In this document: one piece after another, positions 4,699-12,017 of the stretch
Layout: every line of letters starts with the position of its first letter
How positions within the stretch are numbered: the first letter of the stretch is position 1
DNA from: Candidatus Syntropharchaeum caldarium
Lineage (GTDB): Archaea > Halobacteriota > Syntropharchaeia > Syntropharchaeales > Syntropharchaeaceae
Direction: 5' to 3'
Length of the DNA stretch: 32,000 nucleotides
NCBI GenBank assembly: GCA_001766815.1
Contig: LYOS01000002.1
Location: forward strand, 324,577-356,576
Notes under the pieces: generated by a model
Database searches by the model: none
What the model was told of the DNA's origin: nothing
The model's input: only the letters and a program-made list of their open reading frames with translations
Position numbers and translations under genes: made by a program

Positions 4699-5912
4699 CG
4701 CCCCGACCCTCCTATCACGGCTCCTGCCTCATACACAACCTCACCCCTCACAAGCGTCATCTGCGGGAATATCCCGATCATACCCTCATACGGTGTCCAT
4801 CTGCATTTACTGTGGAGTTCATCTCCTCGTATAACTTTCTCCTCCTGCATATCAACCACAATCAGGTCTGCATCAGAGCCAACATTTATCCCACACTTTC
4901 CGTACTTACCAAGACCAAAGATCGATGCAGGTCTCTCTGATACAAGCTCAACGAGGCGTTTAAGACTCAAGTTTCCCTCTTTTACCTCACGGAGCATAAG
5001 CGGTACCATCGTCTCAACTCCAGGGACACCCGGTGGAGGGTCATCCCCCAGCTTCTCTCCATGGGTGTGTGGAGCATGATCTGAGGCGATGATATCGATA
5101 CTATCGACTCGCTCCCATAGTCCCTTTCTATCAGCATCCGATCGCAATGGTGGATTCATCCATCCATAACCCCCAAGCCGATCACGATCTTTATCACACA
5201 GAAAGAGATGGTGCGGCGTGACCTCAAGCGTTGCACCGCCTCCTCCTGATTTAATAAGATCAACACCTTGCGGAACGCTTACATGGCAGAAGTGCATCCT
5301 GCCCCATCTGTTTAGAGAAAGCACGTCTTTTATCCCCTCAATCTCACATACTGGAGGGCGAAGCGGATCTTTCTCAACACAACGCTTCTTCTCAGGATGA
5401 ATTGTCGCAATCGCTCCAAGCTCCCAGATCTTATCAAGAATTGCTTTCAGTGAATCAGGCTCAAATCTGTACTGGAAGATCTCACCAAACGCCCTCACAC
5501 CCCCCTCATAAAGCTCTCTGAAATTCTCTAATTTCTCAACACCACCGTTTATCAGAAAATCTACAACAGCCTGCGATGAGGCTTTACTTATCCGTTCATC
5601 GAGCCTTTTTCGTGTTATTATCGGTGGATCGGTATTTGGCTGGTCAACCACCGTCGTAACACCGCCTGCAGCCGCCGATGATGTGCCTGTGAACCAGTCC
5701 TCTTTGTATGCTTCTTTTCCATCTCGCATGTGAACATGGACGTCTATCGCACCTGGTAAAAGGATGAGACCTTTGAGGTCAAGCAGTAAATCATGTTCTC
5801 CGTGTAGATCTTTTTTTATCTCTACAATTTTGCCATCCTCAATCCTTATATCTGTATCAACGAGTCCTCCCTCGATGTACGCCCTCGCATTTTTCAGGAT
5901 AAGATCGCTCAT
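4662..5912 (-). CDS. pyrC: Dihydroorotase (amidohydrolase superfamily)
   Basis: 416 aa. Metal-binding DVHVHMRDG motif, then KEDWFTGTSSAAAGGVTTVVDQPNTDPP, and later ASDHAPH. This is the typical archaeal/type-I PyrC layout. Confidence 0.85.
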   Translation of the reverse strand: MSDLILKNARAYIEGGLVDTDIRIEDGKIVEIKKDLHGEHDLLLDLKGLILLPGAIDVHVHMRDGKEAYKEDWFTGTSSAAAGGVTTVVDQPNTDPPIITRKRLDERISKASSQAVVDFLINGGVEKLENFRELYEGGVRAFGEIFQYRFEPDSLKAILDKIWELGAIATIHPEKKRCVEKDPLRPPVCEIEGIKDVLSLNRWGRMHFCHVSVPQGVDLIKSGGGGATLEVTPHHLFLCDKDRDRLGGYGWMNPPLRSDADRKGLWERVDSIDIIASDHAPHTHGEKLGDDPPPGVPGVETMVPLMLREVKEGNLSLKRLVELVSERPASIFGLGKYGKCGINVGSDADLIVVDMQEEKVIRGDELHSKCRWTPYEGMIGIFPQMTLVRGEVVYEAGAVIGGSGRYLPSLSHFDRW

Positions 5913-5952
5913 TATTTATAGAAGGTCATATGAGATTTTAAAGGTTGGTTCT

Positions 5953-6960
5953 ATGGGATGCACAGTAATCGTTGGCGGATTCTTCGGGGACGAAGGAAAA
6001 GGCAAGATCGTGGCACATGTCGCAGAGAGTGATGATCCATCGATAATCGCAAGGGGTGGGGTTGGCCCAAATGCTGGTCACACCGTGATCTCCGGAAAAG
6101 AGTCTTTTGGTGTACGAATGGTGCCATCTGGTTTCATCTATGAGCCTGCAAGACTCATGATCGGTACAGGGGTGCTTGTAAATCCTGACGTGCTGTTTGA
6201 TGAGATAAACAGGATCGGACACAGGGTACGTGAGCGCTTGAAGGTTGATAAGCGCTGCTCGATCATTGAACAGAAGCATATAGAGATGGATAAAAGCGAT
6301 GCAAGGCTTAAGGATAAAATTGGAACAACAGGGACAGGGTGCGGTCCTGCAAATGTTGAGCGAGTGATGCGATCTGCACTTCAGGCAAAAGATATCGAGG
6401 CTCTCGCCGAGTTTATAACTGATGTCCCGCTTGAGGTGAATGAGGCGATCGATCGTGGAGAGTTTGTGATCCTTGAAGGCTCTCAGGGTTTTGGTATCTC
6501 ACTCTTCTACGGGACATACCCCTTTGTTACAACGAAAGATACCACCGCATCCCAGATCGCAGCAGATGTGGGTGTTGGACCCACGAAGATCGATGAAGTT
6601 ATCGTGGTATTCAAGGCATTCCCGACAAGAGTTGGGGAGGGACCATTTGAGACCGAGATGAGCCTGGAAGAGTCAGAGAAGCTTGGCATCGTTGAGTATG
6701 GGACGGTTACAAAACGAAGGCGGCGTATCGGTTACTGGGACGGTAAGTTTGCACGGTACTCTGCGATGATAAATGGTGCAACGTGTATCGCCATAACAGG
6801 GCTTGATCGACTCGATCCTGCAGTGAGGGGCGTGACCGATTATGATAAGCTCTCTGATAAAGTGAAAGAGTTTGTGAGTATGGCAGAGAAGGATGTTGGT
6901 GTACCGTTCAAGCTTCTATCAACAGGCCCTGGTGATACTGAGATCGTTGATTTGAGATAA
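5953..6960 (+). CDS. purA: Adenylosuccinate synthetase (short archaeal form)
   Basis: The track ORF starts at 5764, but that extension overlaps pyrC on the opposite strand. The conserved N-terminus MGCTVIVGGFFGDEGKGKIV (P-loop GDEGKGK) starts at the ATG at 5953. Also present: GTTGTGCGPA and YGTVTKRRRR motifs. Confidence 0.9.
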   Translation: MGCTVIVGGFFGDEGKGKIVAHVAESDDPSIIARGGVGPNAGHTVISGKESFGVRMVPSGFIYEPARLMIGTGVLVNPDVLFDEINRIGHRVRERLKVDKRCSIIEQKHIEMDKSDARLKDKIGTTGTGCGPANVERVMRSALQAKDIEALAEFITDVPLEVNEAIDRGEFVILEGSQGFGISLFYGTYPFVTTKDTTASQIAADVGVGPTKIDEVIVVFKAFPTRVGEGPFETEMSLEESEKLGIVEYGTVTKRRRRIGYWDGKFARYSAMINGATCIAITGLDRLDPAVRGVTDYDKLSDKVKEFVSMAEKDVGVPFKLLSTGPGDTEIVDLR

Positions 6961-7222: not shown

Positions 7223-7912
7223 TTAAAGCTTTGTTAATAGCTGCGCCAGAACAAAAGCTGAGGTTCTGTTAAGACCATGGCTAATCCAGGCACCAAAGAT
7301 GTTTTCTGATTTATACAAAAGATAGCATAATAATGTACCCTGAACAAATACAGGAATCATTCTGAAGATAGTAAATTCTGGATGCCATGCAAATGCAAGA
7401 ATCATTGAAACGATGTAGGAGAGTATCAAATTTTCAGTGTTTTTTAGTGCAAAAAAGAAAAAGACTCCTCTAAACATGAATTCCTCATTAAAAGCATCGA
7501 AAAATAACGGGATACTCCATAGTAGGAATAGAGGCGAGAAAATGTATCCTTTAAGTGAAAATATTATTGCATTGGTGATCGATGTAATTATCAGAATGCC
7601 AAAACCGAGGAGAATGCTTAATTTCAATCTGTTTATGGTTATACCAAAGTCACTTAATTTATACTTTCTCAATTTTATGATTACAAGTCCAGGTAAGAGA
7701 AATAAAATTGTTTTTGCAAGAAAATAAAAATACCATTGGAAACCTCCTTCTGGCAAGTTGCTCATGATCATTCCATAGAAGAAAGTTGCGGGAAGTATCA
7801 TCAATAACATGTCCAAGTATGGCTGGAATTTCTTTTGCCTGACAAGTCCAAACAATATTAAAATAAAGGCAGGGATTAGCTGGAGGACTATCAAATATGG
7901 CATCACAAACAA
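7223..7912 (-). CDS. CPBP-family intramembrane glutamic metalloprotease (CAAX protease / Abi family)
   Basis: 229-aa polytopic membrane protein with the family motifs EEFMFRG (EExxxR), FAWHPEF (FxxxH) and SHGLNR (HxxxN). The track start is TTG at 7912; an ATG lies at 7903. The gene is visibly much more AT-rich than its neighbours (I did not compute GC). Confidence 0.8.
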   Translation of the reverse strand: MFVMPYLIVLQLIPAFILILFGLVRQKKFQPYLDMLLMILPATFFYGMIMSNLPEGGFQWYFYFLAKTILFLLPGLVIIKLRKYKLSDFGITINRLKLSILLGFGILIITSITNAIIFSLKGYIFSPLFLLWSIPLFFDAFNEEFMFRGVFFFFALKNTENLILSYIVSMILAFAWHPEFTIFRMIPVFVQGTLLCYLLYKSENIFGAWISHGLNRTSAFVLAQLLTKL

Positions 7913-7933: not shown

Positions 7934-8177
7934 ATTAAATTTTGGATTTTCTGGGCGGAGTGTGGTATCCCGAAATTAGTTTCACTCTGCTCTCCTCTGC
8001 AACAGACTGCGTTCCATGATCTGTAAGAATTTCATCTGGAAGACTGTACTCAGCAAATTCTCTTTTCAGAGCTTCGAAAGGTACCAGAAGGATAATGTTT
8101 TGTAGAGAGAACGCATGCGACGTGAAGACACTCAGAATTCTGTTATTAGACTCGTTGAAAAATAAAATCCCACCAGA
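7934..8177 (-). pseudogene. Decayed C-terminal remnant of a DDE (rve/integrase-core type) transposase
   Basis: My translation of the minus strand gives ...FEALKREFAEYSLPDEILTDHGTQSVAEESRVKLISGYHTPPRKSKI*. PxEILTDHGTQ resembles the second-Asp motif (xTDNGxEF) of rve transposases. YHTPP..KI resembles a degraded YHPQTNGKIE. There is no start codon or N-terminal half, and the D-to-E spacing is too short. It lies in frame directly after the stop of the upstream giant gene. Confidence 0.4.
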
Positions 8178-11100
8178 TCAGCTGAGTGTGATCTGACCTG
8201 ATGGGAGGATTGTAATGTTTGTTGTTGCATCGTCGTAGTTGTAGTATGTGCTATCGCTTGTTGCATAGAACCATGGTTGTGTTGTTGCTGAGCCAGGTGT
8301 TGCTGCCTTCACTGTCGCGATGCCAACCGTGCTTCCTGCAGTAAAGAGAACCATCGAATCACCTGCACTGTCTGTTGTATCTGTTGAGGAGTTGAAGATT
8401 CCAAATGTCCCCAGTGGCTGGCTGAACGTGATTGTAACACCCTGTATCGCTGAGCCTGTACCATTTGTAAGCGTTGCTGTAAGGTTCGAGCTGCCGCCGT
8501 TTGCATAGATCTCTGTTGGGGATGCTGAGAGTGAGATGCTGCATGAGTTTGTGACTTTAAGCGTCTTTGATTCAGTGTCTGTATGATTGGATATATCCCT
8601 GACTGTGAGGTTGATCGTATAGGTTGCTGTCGTGTTCGTGAAGTTGCTGTAAACGTACGTTCCAGGATAGCCCGATATTACACCGCTTGCGTTGATCACC
8701 ACCCCATCCTCGCTGATCAGCCATGTGTGGTTCACGATTGCAAGATCGTCCCATGAGCTACTACCATCAAATGTTACTGCATCGCCTGGATTTACGATAA
8801 AGTCAGGATCTGCTATGCCACTTTGCCACTTGCTATCTGCTGTAAAGTCTGCCGTCGGTGGGTTATCGATCGGATCTGAGTCTGGTGGATCGGTTGTGTA
8901 TATACTGTAACCTGATCCAATTCCGGGAACGATCAGCTCCCCGATGTTATCGATGCTTCCACCGATGATGACATCTCCTGTTGAGTTCACCCATAGCTGA
9001 TAGCTGATCACGAGAGTATCGTTCACGCCTATCGACTTGTTGACGTTGAACTGAAGCTGCTGATAGTCTGATCCATTGTAGAGCGTTGGGCTGCAGTCGA
9101 GGTTGGTATCATTCAGACATGTGGTGAAGGATTCATTCGTCATCGTGGTCTCGTTATAATCTGTGAAGCTCATCGTTGTACTGCCGTTTATGTACCTGCC
9201 TCTTGTAATCTGGGCTGTTGTATCCTCATATGCGAGATGGACATTGACTGTCATCCCGTTTGCAATCGCCTGTACGTCTGTATATATCTCTTCAAAGATA
9301 GGATCAAGCGCTGATGCATCCTCTGCCTTGTAATACTTACCCCCTGTCTGATCTGCGATATTTCTGAGTTCATCCTCGTTAACATCACCTGTAAGTCCGA
9401 CCGTATAGACCCTTATCCCGTTATCGATCGCTCGCTGGATCTCATCATCTCCATCATAGTCATCACTGTTTGTCTCACCATCTGTTAAGAGGATCTCTAT
9501 CCGCACCGAATCTCGTGGATTGCCAGATGCGCCTGTCTGCCAGTCTCCAATCCTGAAACCATAGTCCGTATCACCAGAGTTATCAGAGACAAGCCGTGTC
9601 AGTATGGTATCTCCTGAAACCCATGGTGTCCAGTATGTCCCGCCATCATGATCATAACTCCATCCATTGACCTCTGGTAGCACCGTGCCGTTCTGATCAT
9701 ACATATAGAAGTAATCACCGTCGTCGAGGTTGTAATCAGACCCATGTGGGTAGCCGTAGGGAGAACCGTTATCGATCATGTCAGTATGGAATCCGTGTGT
9801 GGACTCCACAGGCACACCACTTGTGAGATACTCCACATAATAGCCTTTGTATCCATAGTCTGTCTCTTTTGTGTTATCTCCTGATGTGAACCGAATCTTT
9901 ATTGTATCACCTTCAGCCCATGGGGACGCTAGCATATCTGTGTAGGTGGTGGTGGACTGCCAGTTCCAGTCAATCCATCCAAGTGGATTATCACTTCCAT
10001 CATAGAAGTAGATGCGATCATCTTCGTAGTCGAGGTTCTCTCTGAACTTGATTCGGACGGCAGTTGCACCTGGAATCGTTAAGTTTGTGTAGTAGTCAGC
10101 ATCTCGCATATAACCGTCATAATAACCACTATCTCGATATGGATCTGTCTCACGACCATGGGAGGATTCTATCGGTAAGTTATCTGCAACCTCTGCGTAG
10201 TACGCCTTAAATCCCCAGTCGGTACCGCTACCATCTGTAACAAGCCTTATCCTGATCGTATCGCCCTGAACCCATGCCGACCACTGTGTGTTATTCTCCC
10301 ACCGATAACTGCATCGTCCAAGCGATTCATTATTTGCGTTGTAGAAGTAGAGGTAGTCCCCAGAGTTTAAATTGACCGTGAAGTTTACTCTGATTGCGGT
10401 TGCACCTGGTTCTGGACAGATCGTCCAGGTGTTATCATAGTTATTTGAATACGGGTGTGTCGACTCCACACTGAGTGGATACGCTGCTGTAACGTTAGCT
10501 TCAAGGCTTGTATTGGTTACACCACTCAATAATGAAGTCAGGTTATATTGATTGACGAGTGTACAGGCATACTCATCAGTTGCAACATGCATCCCATCAT
10601 AGATCGCTGTGTTTCCAGAACTATCTATCTCGTCAAGTGATGCATTGACTGAAGCCTTGCCGCTCGCATCTGTGAATACAAGGGTTTGAGTCAGTACTGC
10701 ATCCGCGTCAAAGTCAACAACCCCTGCCTGATCGGTCGCATTCATCTTTCCGACAAAGTTCTTTGCAGCAGCTATTCTAAGGTCGTCTGGATCATTCCAG
10801 TCCATACTTCCCGAGCTATCCATCACAAAGATCACATCGATAGGCTTATTCTCACCAAGCTCACCCTTACCGATGATCGTATGTGTTACATTCAGGATGT
10901 GGGGAAGTTGTGCTTCTGAGAGGGATGGTGGGTCATAGGTCGTTGTCACCTCAAGGAATGGTGCCCCTTTTACGATTATGAGTGCTGACCCATTTACAGT
11001 TGGTTCAAATGTTGAATTAACGGTTGCATTTGCGGTGATCGTGACGTTGGTTGAGGTGGTTAGTGTGCCGTTGAATGAAGTGAAATTCACACTTGCTCTG

Positions 11101-12017
11101 CCATTCGAGTCTGTTGTTGTGGTCAGATGTGTTACATTATCTACCGTTCCATTTCCAAGCGTGCCGTTTGTGGTCGTGATGTTCACGAGTGTATTTGAAA
11201 GTGCATACTTTTCACCATTTACATCCGCATAGCTCAGGCGCAGATGGATCGTTGAGTTCTTTGTAACCGTTATATCTCCGTAGTTCTGGTATGCAACAAC
11301 CGAAGGTTCTGGTGTCACAAGAAGCTGGAGATTTACGGGCTCAAAGGTCACGGTTTTGGTATCTGTTATTGATGTACCGTTGATCGTTGCTGTTATGTTG
11401 TAGGTTGCAACTGCCGCGGTTGCTGATATGTTGAATCGCGCATATCCTGTGGTGTTTGTCTTCTGCTTGTAAATATCAGCAGAGTCGTTGAATGTGAAAT
11501 CAACCCATGTATCGCTCTTTGGATTTCCACAGTAATCGGTTACCCTTGCAAGTACCAGAGGCGTGTGATCATTGTCTGCTCGACAGACTGAAGGTGTTAC
11601 TGTGAGATCGATGTTTCTTGCGGATTCATTGCACTGGAAACAGACATTTGTTGTGTCGTTGATCGAATTGTTTGATGTAACATTTGCTGTAACTGTTATC
11701 ACCGATACCTCTGATGATGTGTTGAGGTGTGCTGTTGCACTGCTACCACTTGTCATGGTTGTATATGTTGAGGAACTATTTTCTGTGAATGCACCAAAGT
11801 CTGTTGTAAACGTCACATTCGTATCGTCTGCCAGGCTTCCATTTGCATCATAGAGGGTCACCGTTATCGTTGATGTATTCCCGAGTATCACATCCTCAGG
11901 ATCTGCTGAGATTGTGATCGATGAGGGAGGTCCTGCTACCGCCGTGGTTGTGCCTGAAAGAATAGTTAAAACCAGGAATACTGATATGTATAACTTATGC
12001 TGTTTTAACTTTTTTAT
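8178..12017 (-). CDS. Giant secreted, sequon-rich surface protein: Ig-like (Big_1-type) repeats, a vWA domain split by three CUB-like modules, a PKD domain and a terminal Ig-like domain
   Basis: The track ORF is 8178..11891 (1237 aa, GTG start). The frame stays open upstream to 12032 and encodes KKLKQHKLYISVFLVLTILSGTTTAVAG, a signal peptide. A strong SD (GGAGGTGA, 12022-12029) lies 4 nt before an ATA codon at 12015-12017. vWA MIDAS motif: DVIFVMDSSGSMD ... GNTAIYDG ... ILLTDGETN. CUB-like repeats begin ESTHPYSNNYDNTWTI. PKD: DFTADS...FDGSSS...YTINLTVRD. NxS/T sequons are very dense. Confidence 0.85.
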   Translation of the reverse strand: MKKLKQHKLYISVFLVLTILSGTTTAVAGPPSSITISADPEDVILGNTSTITVTLYDANGSLADDTNVTFTTDFGAFTENSSSTYTTMTSGSSATAHLNTSSEVSVITVTANVTSNNSINDTTNVCFQCNESARNIDLTVTPSVCRADNDHTPLVLARVTDYCGNPKSDTWVDFTFNDSADIYKQKTNTTGYARFNISATAAVATYNITATINGTSITDTKTVTFEPVNLQLLVTPEPSVVAYQNYGDITVTKNSTIHLRLSYADVNGEKYALSNTLVNITTTNGTLGNGTVDNVTHLTTTTDSNGRASVNFTSFNGTLTTSTNVTITANATVNSTFEPTVNGSALIIVKGAPFLEVTTTYDPPSLSEAQLPHILNVTHTIIGKGELGENKPIDVIFVMDSSGSMDWNDPDDLRIAAAKNFVGKMNATDQAGVVDFDADAVLTQTLVFTDASGKASVNASLDEIDSSGNTAIYDGMHVATDEYACTLVNQYNLTSLLSGVTNTSLEANVTAAYPLSVESTHPYSNNYDNTWTICPEPGATAIRVNFTVNLNSGDYLYFYNANNESLGRCSYRWENNTQWSAWVQGDTIRIRLVTDGSGTDWGFKAYYAEVADNLPIESSHGRETDPYRDSGYYDGYMRDADYYTNLTIPGATAVRIKFRENLDYEDDRIYFYDGSDNPLGWIDWNWQSTTTYTDMLASPWAEGDTIKIRFTSGDNTKETDYGYKGYYVEYLTSGVPVESTHGFHTDMIDNGSPYGYPHGSDYNLDDGDYFYMYDQNGTVLPEVNGWSYDHDGGTYWTPWVSGDTILTRLVSDNSGDTDYGFRIGDWQTGASGNPRDSVRIEILLTDGETNSDDYDGDDEIQRAIDNGIRVYTVGLTGDVNEDELRNIADQTGGKYYKAEDASALDPIFEEIYTDVQAIANGMTVNVHLAYEDTTAQITRGRYINGSTTMSFTDYNETTMTNESFTTCLNDTNLDCSPTLYNGSDYQQLQFNVNKSIGVNDTLVISYQLWVNSTGDVIIGGSIDNIGELIVPGIGSGYSIYTTDPPDSDPIDNPPTADFTADSKWQSGIADPDFIVNPGDAVTFDGSSSWDDLAIVNHTWLISEDGVVINASGVISGYPGTYVYSNFTNTTATYTINLTVRDISNHTDTESKTLKVTNSCSISLSASPTEIYANGGSSNLTATLTNGTGSAIQGVTITFSQPLGTFGIFNSSTDTTDSAGDSMVLFTAGSTVGIATVKAATPGSATTQPWFYATSDSTYYNYDDATTNITILPSGQITLS

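Follow-up and report, generated by a model that had tools for sequence, protein, structure and literature searches.

Can an array of three complete CUB-like modules be nested within a single von Willebrand factor type A (VWA) domain, and where would such an array stand with respect to the metal site of its host? The question is raised by a large gene found in a stretch of 32,000 nucleotides of Candidatus Syntropharchaeum caldarium (contig LYOS01000002.1, positions 324,577 to 356,576; "the window" in the following means this whole stretch). The gene is an uninterrupted open reading frame of 1237 aa, located at 8178-11891 on the minus strand and counted from the GTG at 11891. Amino acids are numbered from this GTG, as in an earlier note, made from the sequence alone, where a VWA fold split by three CUB-like repeats (here R1, R2 and R3) had been proposed. 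The exact protein is already public (OFV68255.1, UniRef100_A0A1F2PB20, Candidatus Syntropharchaeum), and its record reports von Willebrand factor type A only, mentioning neither the CUB array nor the signal peptide nor the likely non-canonical start described below.

The split VWA domain and its insert

The whole protein was matched by Pfam VWA (PF00092) with 64.7 bits, against a cutoff of 23.8 (E=1.6e-17). The match falls into two stretches around the insert, where residues 353-439 correspond to positions 1-87 of the VWA_2 profile (PF13519, E=9e-10), and residues 786-867 to positions 94-173 of the VWA profile. As the two sets of profile coordinates are complementary, the stretches are pieces of one VWA model and not two partial domains; both halves are covered, and the match is neither continuous nor limited to one of them. 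The five residues of the metal-ion-dependent adhesion site (MIDAS) are all present, D358, S360, S362 and T428 in the N-terminal half and D804 in the C-terminal half, so that the metal site needs both halves. The description of a VWA fold in two parts about 340 aa apart, with the positions and residues given for it in the earlier note, thus holds, and the MIDAS is complete across the halves.

In order to place the insert, VWA sequences alone were aligned by MAFFT (alignment A4), and this alignment was used for the whole segment, while an alignment of triple-CUB sequences (A5) was used for the insert. Mixed VWA and CUB rows (A3), as well as alignments of half-domain fragments, were discarded, the VWA core being misplaced onto R1. 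The insert was located at about aa 444-788, corresponding to about 345 residues. In 291 related VWA domains the gap at this point has a median of 1 aa and a 95th percentile of 8 aa, and in the nearest VWA relatives, about 50% identical, the stretches aligned to the two halves are separated by only about 17 residues (97-179 and 196-266 in protein P0001). The MIDAS columns of A4 are invariant or nearly so, D804 (D465 of the modelled segment) being nearly invariant.

A model of aa 340-885 was built by AlphaFold2 from the VWA-only alignment. The predicted local distance difference test (pLDDT) values range between 94 and 98 for the N-terminal half and between 91 and 97 for the C-terminal half, and the elements follow in the order b1 a1 b2 b3 a2 a3 [insert] b4 a4 b5 a5 b6 a6. 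According to the model, the two halves would form one Rossmann-like domain, in which helices alternate with six strands. Behind the MIDAS Thr comes a helix at residues 91-116 of the modelled segment, and the pLDDT drops after about residue 105. VWA domains were matched by the model in Foldseek, SpaC (6m48) being among the hits, and also by a profile search of the PDB.

The insert is made of three tandem beta-sandwich repeats, as had been described. R1 is related to R2 with an E-value of 5e-15 and to the intact form of R3 with one of 2e-13, and the motifs ES(T/S)H, DY.Y.YD, GDTI.IR and TD.S..(W/Y)G(F/Y) are common to the three; in R2, the ESSH motif is followed by an additional loop of about 14 aa, and some minor insertions come later in the module. 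Three matches to the CUB profile had been expected. By direct Pfam search only R1 was matched (PF00431, the CUB domain of Bork and Beckmann 1993; E=0.003), with 18.1 bits against a gathering score of 21.4, hence below threshold, and intact R3 matched only CUB_2 (E=0.02); the expectation is borne out at the level of a family profile. R1 is 40-50% identical to modules of many bacterial and archaeal proteins which are above the CUB threshold (P0015, P0033, P0020 and P0063). The P0015 module is 50% identical to R1 and scores 41 bits on Pfam CUB; the corresponding scores are 26.8 for P0118, 28.0 for P0126 and 25.5 for P0033. A profile was built from 20 modules, R1-R3 included, 18 of which individually match Pfam CUB. 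When compared with the PDB, its significant matches were exclusively CUB structures, all metazoan: cubilin (4.4e-20), PCPE-1 (5.9e-8), TSG-6 (2.2e-6), and further neuropilins, MASPs (MASP-2), C1r and Kremen.

The fold of the modules was modelled by AlphaFold2 from the triple-CUB alignment. The pLDDT is 86-95 for R1, 60-89 for the cores of R2 and R3, and below 50 around a deletion in R3 (see below). In Foldseek, the structures ranking 1 to 24 all contain CUB domains (neuropilin, enteropeptidase, PCPE-1, C1r, MASPs). That the repeats might be PPC or P-domains was also considered, and no such profile or fold signal was obtained for R1-R3; neither the PDB profile search nor Foldseek pointed to a jelly-roll family other than CUB. 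R1-R3 belong to a cysteine-less prokaryotic branch of the CUB superfamily, and the assignment to CUB is right at the superfamily level. The modules are homologous to metazoan CUB domains (cubilin, PCPE-1, C1r/C1s/MASPs, neuropilin, TSG-6) by profile, with E-values down to 4e-20, and by fold; they differ from them in their archaeal setting, in their Pfam scores, R1 being below threshold and R2 and R3 undetected, and in lacking the four disulfide cysteines. No cysteine is conserved in the alignment of prokaryotic modules; R1 contains two non-conserved cysteines, R2 and R3 none. The Tyr-Glu-Asp-Asp positions of the Ca2+ site, aligned with metazoan CUB, are present in the prokaryotic consensus. 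The two Asp positions (D46, D87) are invariant in alignment A2, and the Glu position is occupied by N, D and D in R1, R2 and R3, respectively. The features of the gene are reported in Table 1.

Table 1. Features of the surface-protein gene and of its downstream neighbour; coordinates refer to the window, amino acids are counted from the GTG at 11891.
Feature	Coordinates	Strand	Residues	Basis
Probable N-terminal extension with signal peptide (IKKLKQHKLYISVFLVLTILSGTTTAVAGPPSS...), unannotated	11892..12017	-		42 in-frame codons upstream of the GTG at 11891
N-terminal stalk, Big_1/invasin-type Ig-like domains	10860..11891	-	1-344	Pfam Big_1 E=6.6e-19, Invasin_D3 E=9e-15
VWA N-terminal half, beta1-alpha1-beta2-beta3-alpha2-alpha3	10563..10859	-	345-443	Pfam VWA_2, A4, AlphaFold
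Linker: last part of the helix behind the MIDAS Thr, followed by a sequon-rich connector to R1	10476..10562	-	444-472	AlphaFold; 3 sequons/29 aa
R1, CUB-like module 1, best-conserved copy	10194..10475	-	473-566	Pfam CUB sub-threshold; pLDDT 86-95
R2, CUB-like module 2	9831..10193	-	567-687	R1 (E=5e-15) and intact R3 as nearest relatives; pLDDT 65-89, extra loop excluded
R3, CUB-like module 3, without 19 aa in the window's genome	9537..9830	-	688-785	alignment with orthologues
Remaining copy of the 12-nt direct repeat	9729..9740	-		stretch aligns twice to L020
VWA C-terminal half, beta4-alpha4-beta5-alpha5-beta6-alpha6	9252..9536	-	786-880	Pfam VWA profile 94-173, AlphaFold
C-terminal region: beta-rich domain, PKD domain, Big_1 domain	8178..9251	-	881-1237	Pfam PKD_4 E=1.4e-4, Big_1 E=1.8e-8 on fragment
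CPBP/Rce1-like intramembrane protease gene	7223-7912	-		directly downstream of the surface-protein gene, same strand

Integrity, probable exit site and proposed role of the CUB array

We consider it likely that the protein is a secreted one of the adhesin type, serving multivalent adhesion, in which the three CUB modules occupy the loop between a helix and strand beta4 of a host VWA and leave from its bottom face. It would be an adhesin-type surface protein of Ca. Syntropharchaeum, secreted and probably N-glycosylated. The single VWA is the host of the three cysteine-less modules of prokaryotic type, and receives them in the loop that connects the helix behind the MIDAS Thr with beta4. Its halves would fold together as one Rossmann-like domain, with a metal site assembled from D358, S360, S362, T428 and D804, able to bind an acidic ligand residue via Mg2+ or Ca2+. 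The bottom face would be the point of departure of the Ig-like stalks and of the CUB arm alike, leaving the MIDAS face unobstructed. The CUB arm may offer a second, possibly Ca2+-dependent, binding surface, or serve for spacing or oligomerisation; for an archaeon that forms consortia, the adhesion target could be partner cells or matrix. An extracellular glycosylated adhesin is the best-supported reading, and is suggested by the signal peptide, the Ig-like domains, the sequons and the MIDAS. The whole protein contains 55 N-X-S/T sequons, compared to 22 +/- 4 in shuffled sequences, most of them in the Ig-like regions, which agrees with the archaeal surface glycoprotein originally suggested.

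MIDAS-bearing VWA domains are found in nested adhesin architectures also in integrin I domains and in RrgA and SpaC, the pilus-tip adhesins of Gram-positive bacteria. In integrins, unlike here, the VWA is the guest and not the host; in RrgA and SpaC it is host to short arms near the MIDAS, and not to complete CUB domains at the opposite pole. In the VWA/integrin I fold, the MIDAS lies at the C-terminal ends of the parallel strands, and the helices run back to the opposite pole, where the N- and C-termini of the domain are also found. In the protein described here, the helix that begins immediately behind the MIDAS Thr leads into the insert, and the insert leads into strand beta4, at the C-terminal end of which the MIDAS Asp D804 is found. 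By VWA topology this loop is at the pole of the termini, hence the insert is expected on the face opposite the metal site; we infer that it most likely leaves from there, beside the domain termini. As the array leaves and re-enters at one point, it is more likely to be a looped side arm than an extended rod.

The CUB modules had been thought to stand directly on the adhesion site, and might then cooperate with the metal on the MIDAS face as one composite ligand-binding site. Both VWA and CUB are ligand-binding modules, and no more than about 16 residues of sequence lie between the MIDAS Thr and the start of the insert; the residues from T428 to the insert, however, correspond to the long helix of the model (residues 91-116), which in the VWA fold leads from the MIDAS face to the other pole. 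On its return the chain joins beta4 at the N-terminal (bottom) end of the strand, whereas D804 is at the C-terminal (top) end. The composite site is accordingly regarded as very improbable, and the direct placement is not upheld. That the architecture itself could be an artefact, namely an assembly chimera or a decaying pseudogene joining half a VWA, a CUB array and another half VWA, was weighed against the related genomes. The contig of P0341 (L001) does end exactly at the R1/R2 boundary, and R3 in the window differs from its orthologues by an indel flanked by a direct repeat. It lacks 19 aa (SDYNWTLQVPGAEYIRAYI) after aa 717, about one to two strands, corresponding to the "W.I..PGA..IR" strands of the module, which are present in all three orthologues covering R3 (P0340, P0344 and P0343). 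The deletion measures 57 nt, is in-frame, and its 12-nt flanking repeat encodes SDYN; locus L021 (that of P0343), which has the SMC-side context of the window at 98.7% identity, carries an intact R3. It may be either a strain polymorphism produced by slippage or an assembly collapse. Against an artefact, the frame of 1237 aa is unbroken, the profile coordinates of the VWA halves are exactly complementary, the MIDAS is intact, and the order VWA-N, R1, R2, R3, VWA-C recurs at 97-99% identity in members of the same 90% cluster from the assemblies of other samples, at full length in P0340 and P0344 and in part in P0343, which ends early in VWA-C. Together with P0341, which breaks off after R1, four independent assemblies confirm it. 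An assembly chimera is excluded, and the probability left to an artefact of any of these kinds is practically negligible.

The array might also have no binding role of its own and, lodged in a permissive loop, serve as a structural spacer, as a glycosylated shield or for oligomerisation. In P0159, P0136 and P0331 about 52 aa of low-complexity sequence are accommodated in the same VWA loop, R3 could lose 19 aa in one strain, R2 and R3 are far more diverged than R1, and the Glu of the Ca2+ triad is conserved in none of the three copies. On the other hand, ESxH, DY.Y.YD, GDTI.IRL and TD.S..(W/Y)GF are retained by each of the three copies in the different strains, the two Ca2+-ligand Asp are invariant, and few substitutions are found between strains; a role without binding thus appears unlikely. 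Some observations weigh against the adhesin with a bottom-face CUB arm as well. No membrane anchor or sorting signal was found in the protein, R3 is truncated in the genome of the window, and R2 and R3 have no direct Pfam CUB match and moderate model confidence only. Moreover, the adhesion role is proposed solely on the strength of the domain content, and the position of the arm relative to the MIDAS on that of textbook VWA topology.

Nested CUB modules in other proteins

The frequency of the architecture was evaluated by an exhaustive HMMER search of 1.84 billion cluster representatives. It gave 6636 hits in total, whether to VWA or to CUB, and the best 150 of them were examined. Tandem CUB arrays are frequent in this set, where 41 triple-tandem segments were counted and a protein may contain as many as ten modules, whereas CUB nested in VWA was found only in P0118 and P0126, as one module in the same loop; more single-CUB nested cases may exist below the best 150. 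The architecture had been supposed to be without precedent, and CUB to be essentially a metazoan module. The first view has to be corrected in the light of P0118 and P0126, and the second in that of a large prokaryotic CUB family, often arranged in tandem arrays. Searches for homologues by word indexing returned no other nested protein, nor did they return the query's own cluster, and a metagenome scan gave no further nested VWA. In the literature, prokaryotic CUB domains are mentioned in passing and their role is called unclear (PMC2605481, PMC7848895); literature searches retrieved no paper on CUB nested in VWA, and nothing relevant for Syntrophoarchaeum with VWA.

P0118 (1544 aa) and P0126 (1457 aa) are metagenomic and, like the query, carry their CUB in the helix-to-beta4 loop of a MIDAS-bearing VWA. 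Pfam VWA matches them in two stretches, and CUB is above threshold in both (26.8 and 28.0 bits, respectively). Unlike the query, they have one CUB instead of three, and contain a C-terminal transmembrane segment as well as a cytoplasmic zinc ribbon. The two proteins are each other's closest relatives. Their VWA is only distantly related to that of the query: in the ranking of hits to the query halves, more than 130 uninterrupted VWAs come before the halves of P0118 and P0126, which stand at 133-210. The insertion in these two proteins is for this reason probably independent of that of the query, at the same permissive loop. The gene for P0126 (locus L017) lies among genes for FHA, PP2C phosphatase, Ser/Thr kinase and WD40 proteins, which suggests a signalling rather than a purely adhesive setting for this lineage. 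P0026 was tried as a further case and rejected, since its VWA gap of 125 aa comes after beta4, at a different site.

The same cysteine-less module, often in tandem and in secreted proteins, is found for instance in P0015, P0073 (five tandem copies), P0131 (six tandem copies) and L008, with the pattern ES.HPY.NNYDNTWTI ... YDY.Y.YD ... GDTIKIRL.TD.SVT.(W/Y)GF; unlike those of the query, these modules are strung linearly and not nested. Nesting in other hosts was observed as well. The subtilases P0033 and P0063 contain a single copy inside the S8 domain, thus in a peptidase host, P0033 having also a PA-domain insert. In L069 (2470-5190, plus strand), a caspase-like (C14/C13) domain is interrupted by a single module, which separates its N-terminal from its C-terminal part. 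L027 (58-4053, plus strand) and L034 encode about eleven tandem PPC repeats, followed by one CUB module and a caspase-like domain, a further setting in which the module recurs. These two and others had come up as candidate combinations of CUB with a C-terminal VWA half, and were rejected as PPC-repeat/CUB/caspase-like proteins, the VWA-C match reflecting the similarity of alpha/beta folds.

Nesting of CUB is hence recurrent in several alpha/beta hosts. A more far-reaching proposal would be that the cysteine-less CUB is a specialised guest, independently inserted in at least three alpha/beta hosts (VWA in two lineages, subtilase, caspase-like), and at the same time a lever tuning the affinity of the MIDAS. 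In this scheme the CUB arm, tethered to the helix of the MIDAS Thr and sensitive to ligand or force, might act as an allosteric switch, comparable to that of integrins, in an archaeal adhesin that serves a syntrophic consortium. Taken as a whole the proposal is very doubtful, and the allosteric coupling of the arm to the MIDAS is pure conjecture.

The protein is a genuine, rare domain-insertion variant assembled from known parts, and not a new kind of system. With it, the nesting of whole domains is well documented for a surface protein of an archaeon, with a MIDAS formed by segments about 345 residues apart, and attention is drawn to a large, functionally uncharacterised prokaryotic CUB family that is repeatedly used as an inserted domain. 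As Syntropharchaeum lives in obligate consortia, adhesins of this type are candidates for attachment to partners or matrix. The practical value is mainly a better annotation and a defined construct for biochemistry, not a new mechanism.

Flanking regions and neighbouring genes

The region upstream of the annotated GTG was analyzed for a possible extension of the frame. The 42 in-frame codons reported in Table 1 contain no ATG, GTG or TTG suitable as a start, and the sole candidate is an ATA at 12017-12015, which GGAGGTGA precedes by 5 nt. L001 and L020 share this ATA together with the frame and the peptide, and the nucleotide differences across the 42 codons are synonymous. The true N-terminus is therefore probably 42 codons upstream of the annotated GTG, with the ATA at 12017 as a probable non-canonical initiation codon. 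The stalk that follows contains 26 N-X-S/T sequons in 344 aa. At the other end of the protein, no hydrophobic stretch was seen in the translation of aa 881-1237.

The genus Syntropharchaeum is assigned to the class Syntropharchaeia, phylum Halobacteriota, which replaces the placement in Methanosarcinales previously given. The contig L001, from a metagenome-assembled genome and 97% identical to the gene at the nucleotide level, is labelled Ca. Syntrophoarchaeum. The homology of the window to the lineage of L001 and L020 (97%) is limited to the gene, about 150 nt upstream and 20 nt downstream (window positions 8158 and 12169). In that lineage SRP54 and a radical-SAM gene are found upstream in place of SMC; the gene therefore occurs in different genomic contexts among closely related genomes. 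The downstream neighbour of the gene in L020 is an opposite-strand gene of 128 aa, with no Pfam hit on record.

The genes surrounding the surface-protein gene in the window are housekeeping ones, namely SMC, adenylosuccinate synthetase, tRNA-Arg, CetZ and RNA polymerase subunit D. The mechanically called frame for adenylosuccinate synthetase (5764-6960, plus strand) begins about 64 codons before the family-like region and overlaps the end of an opposite-strand amidohydrolase gene; the real start is probably near 5956.

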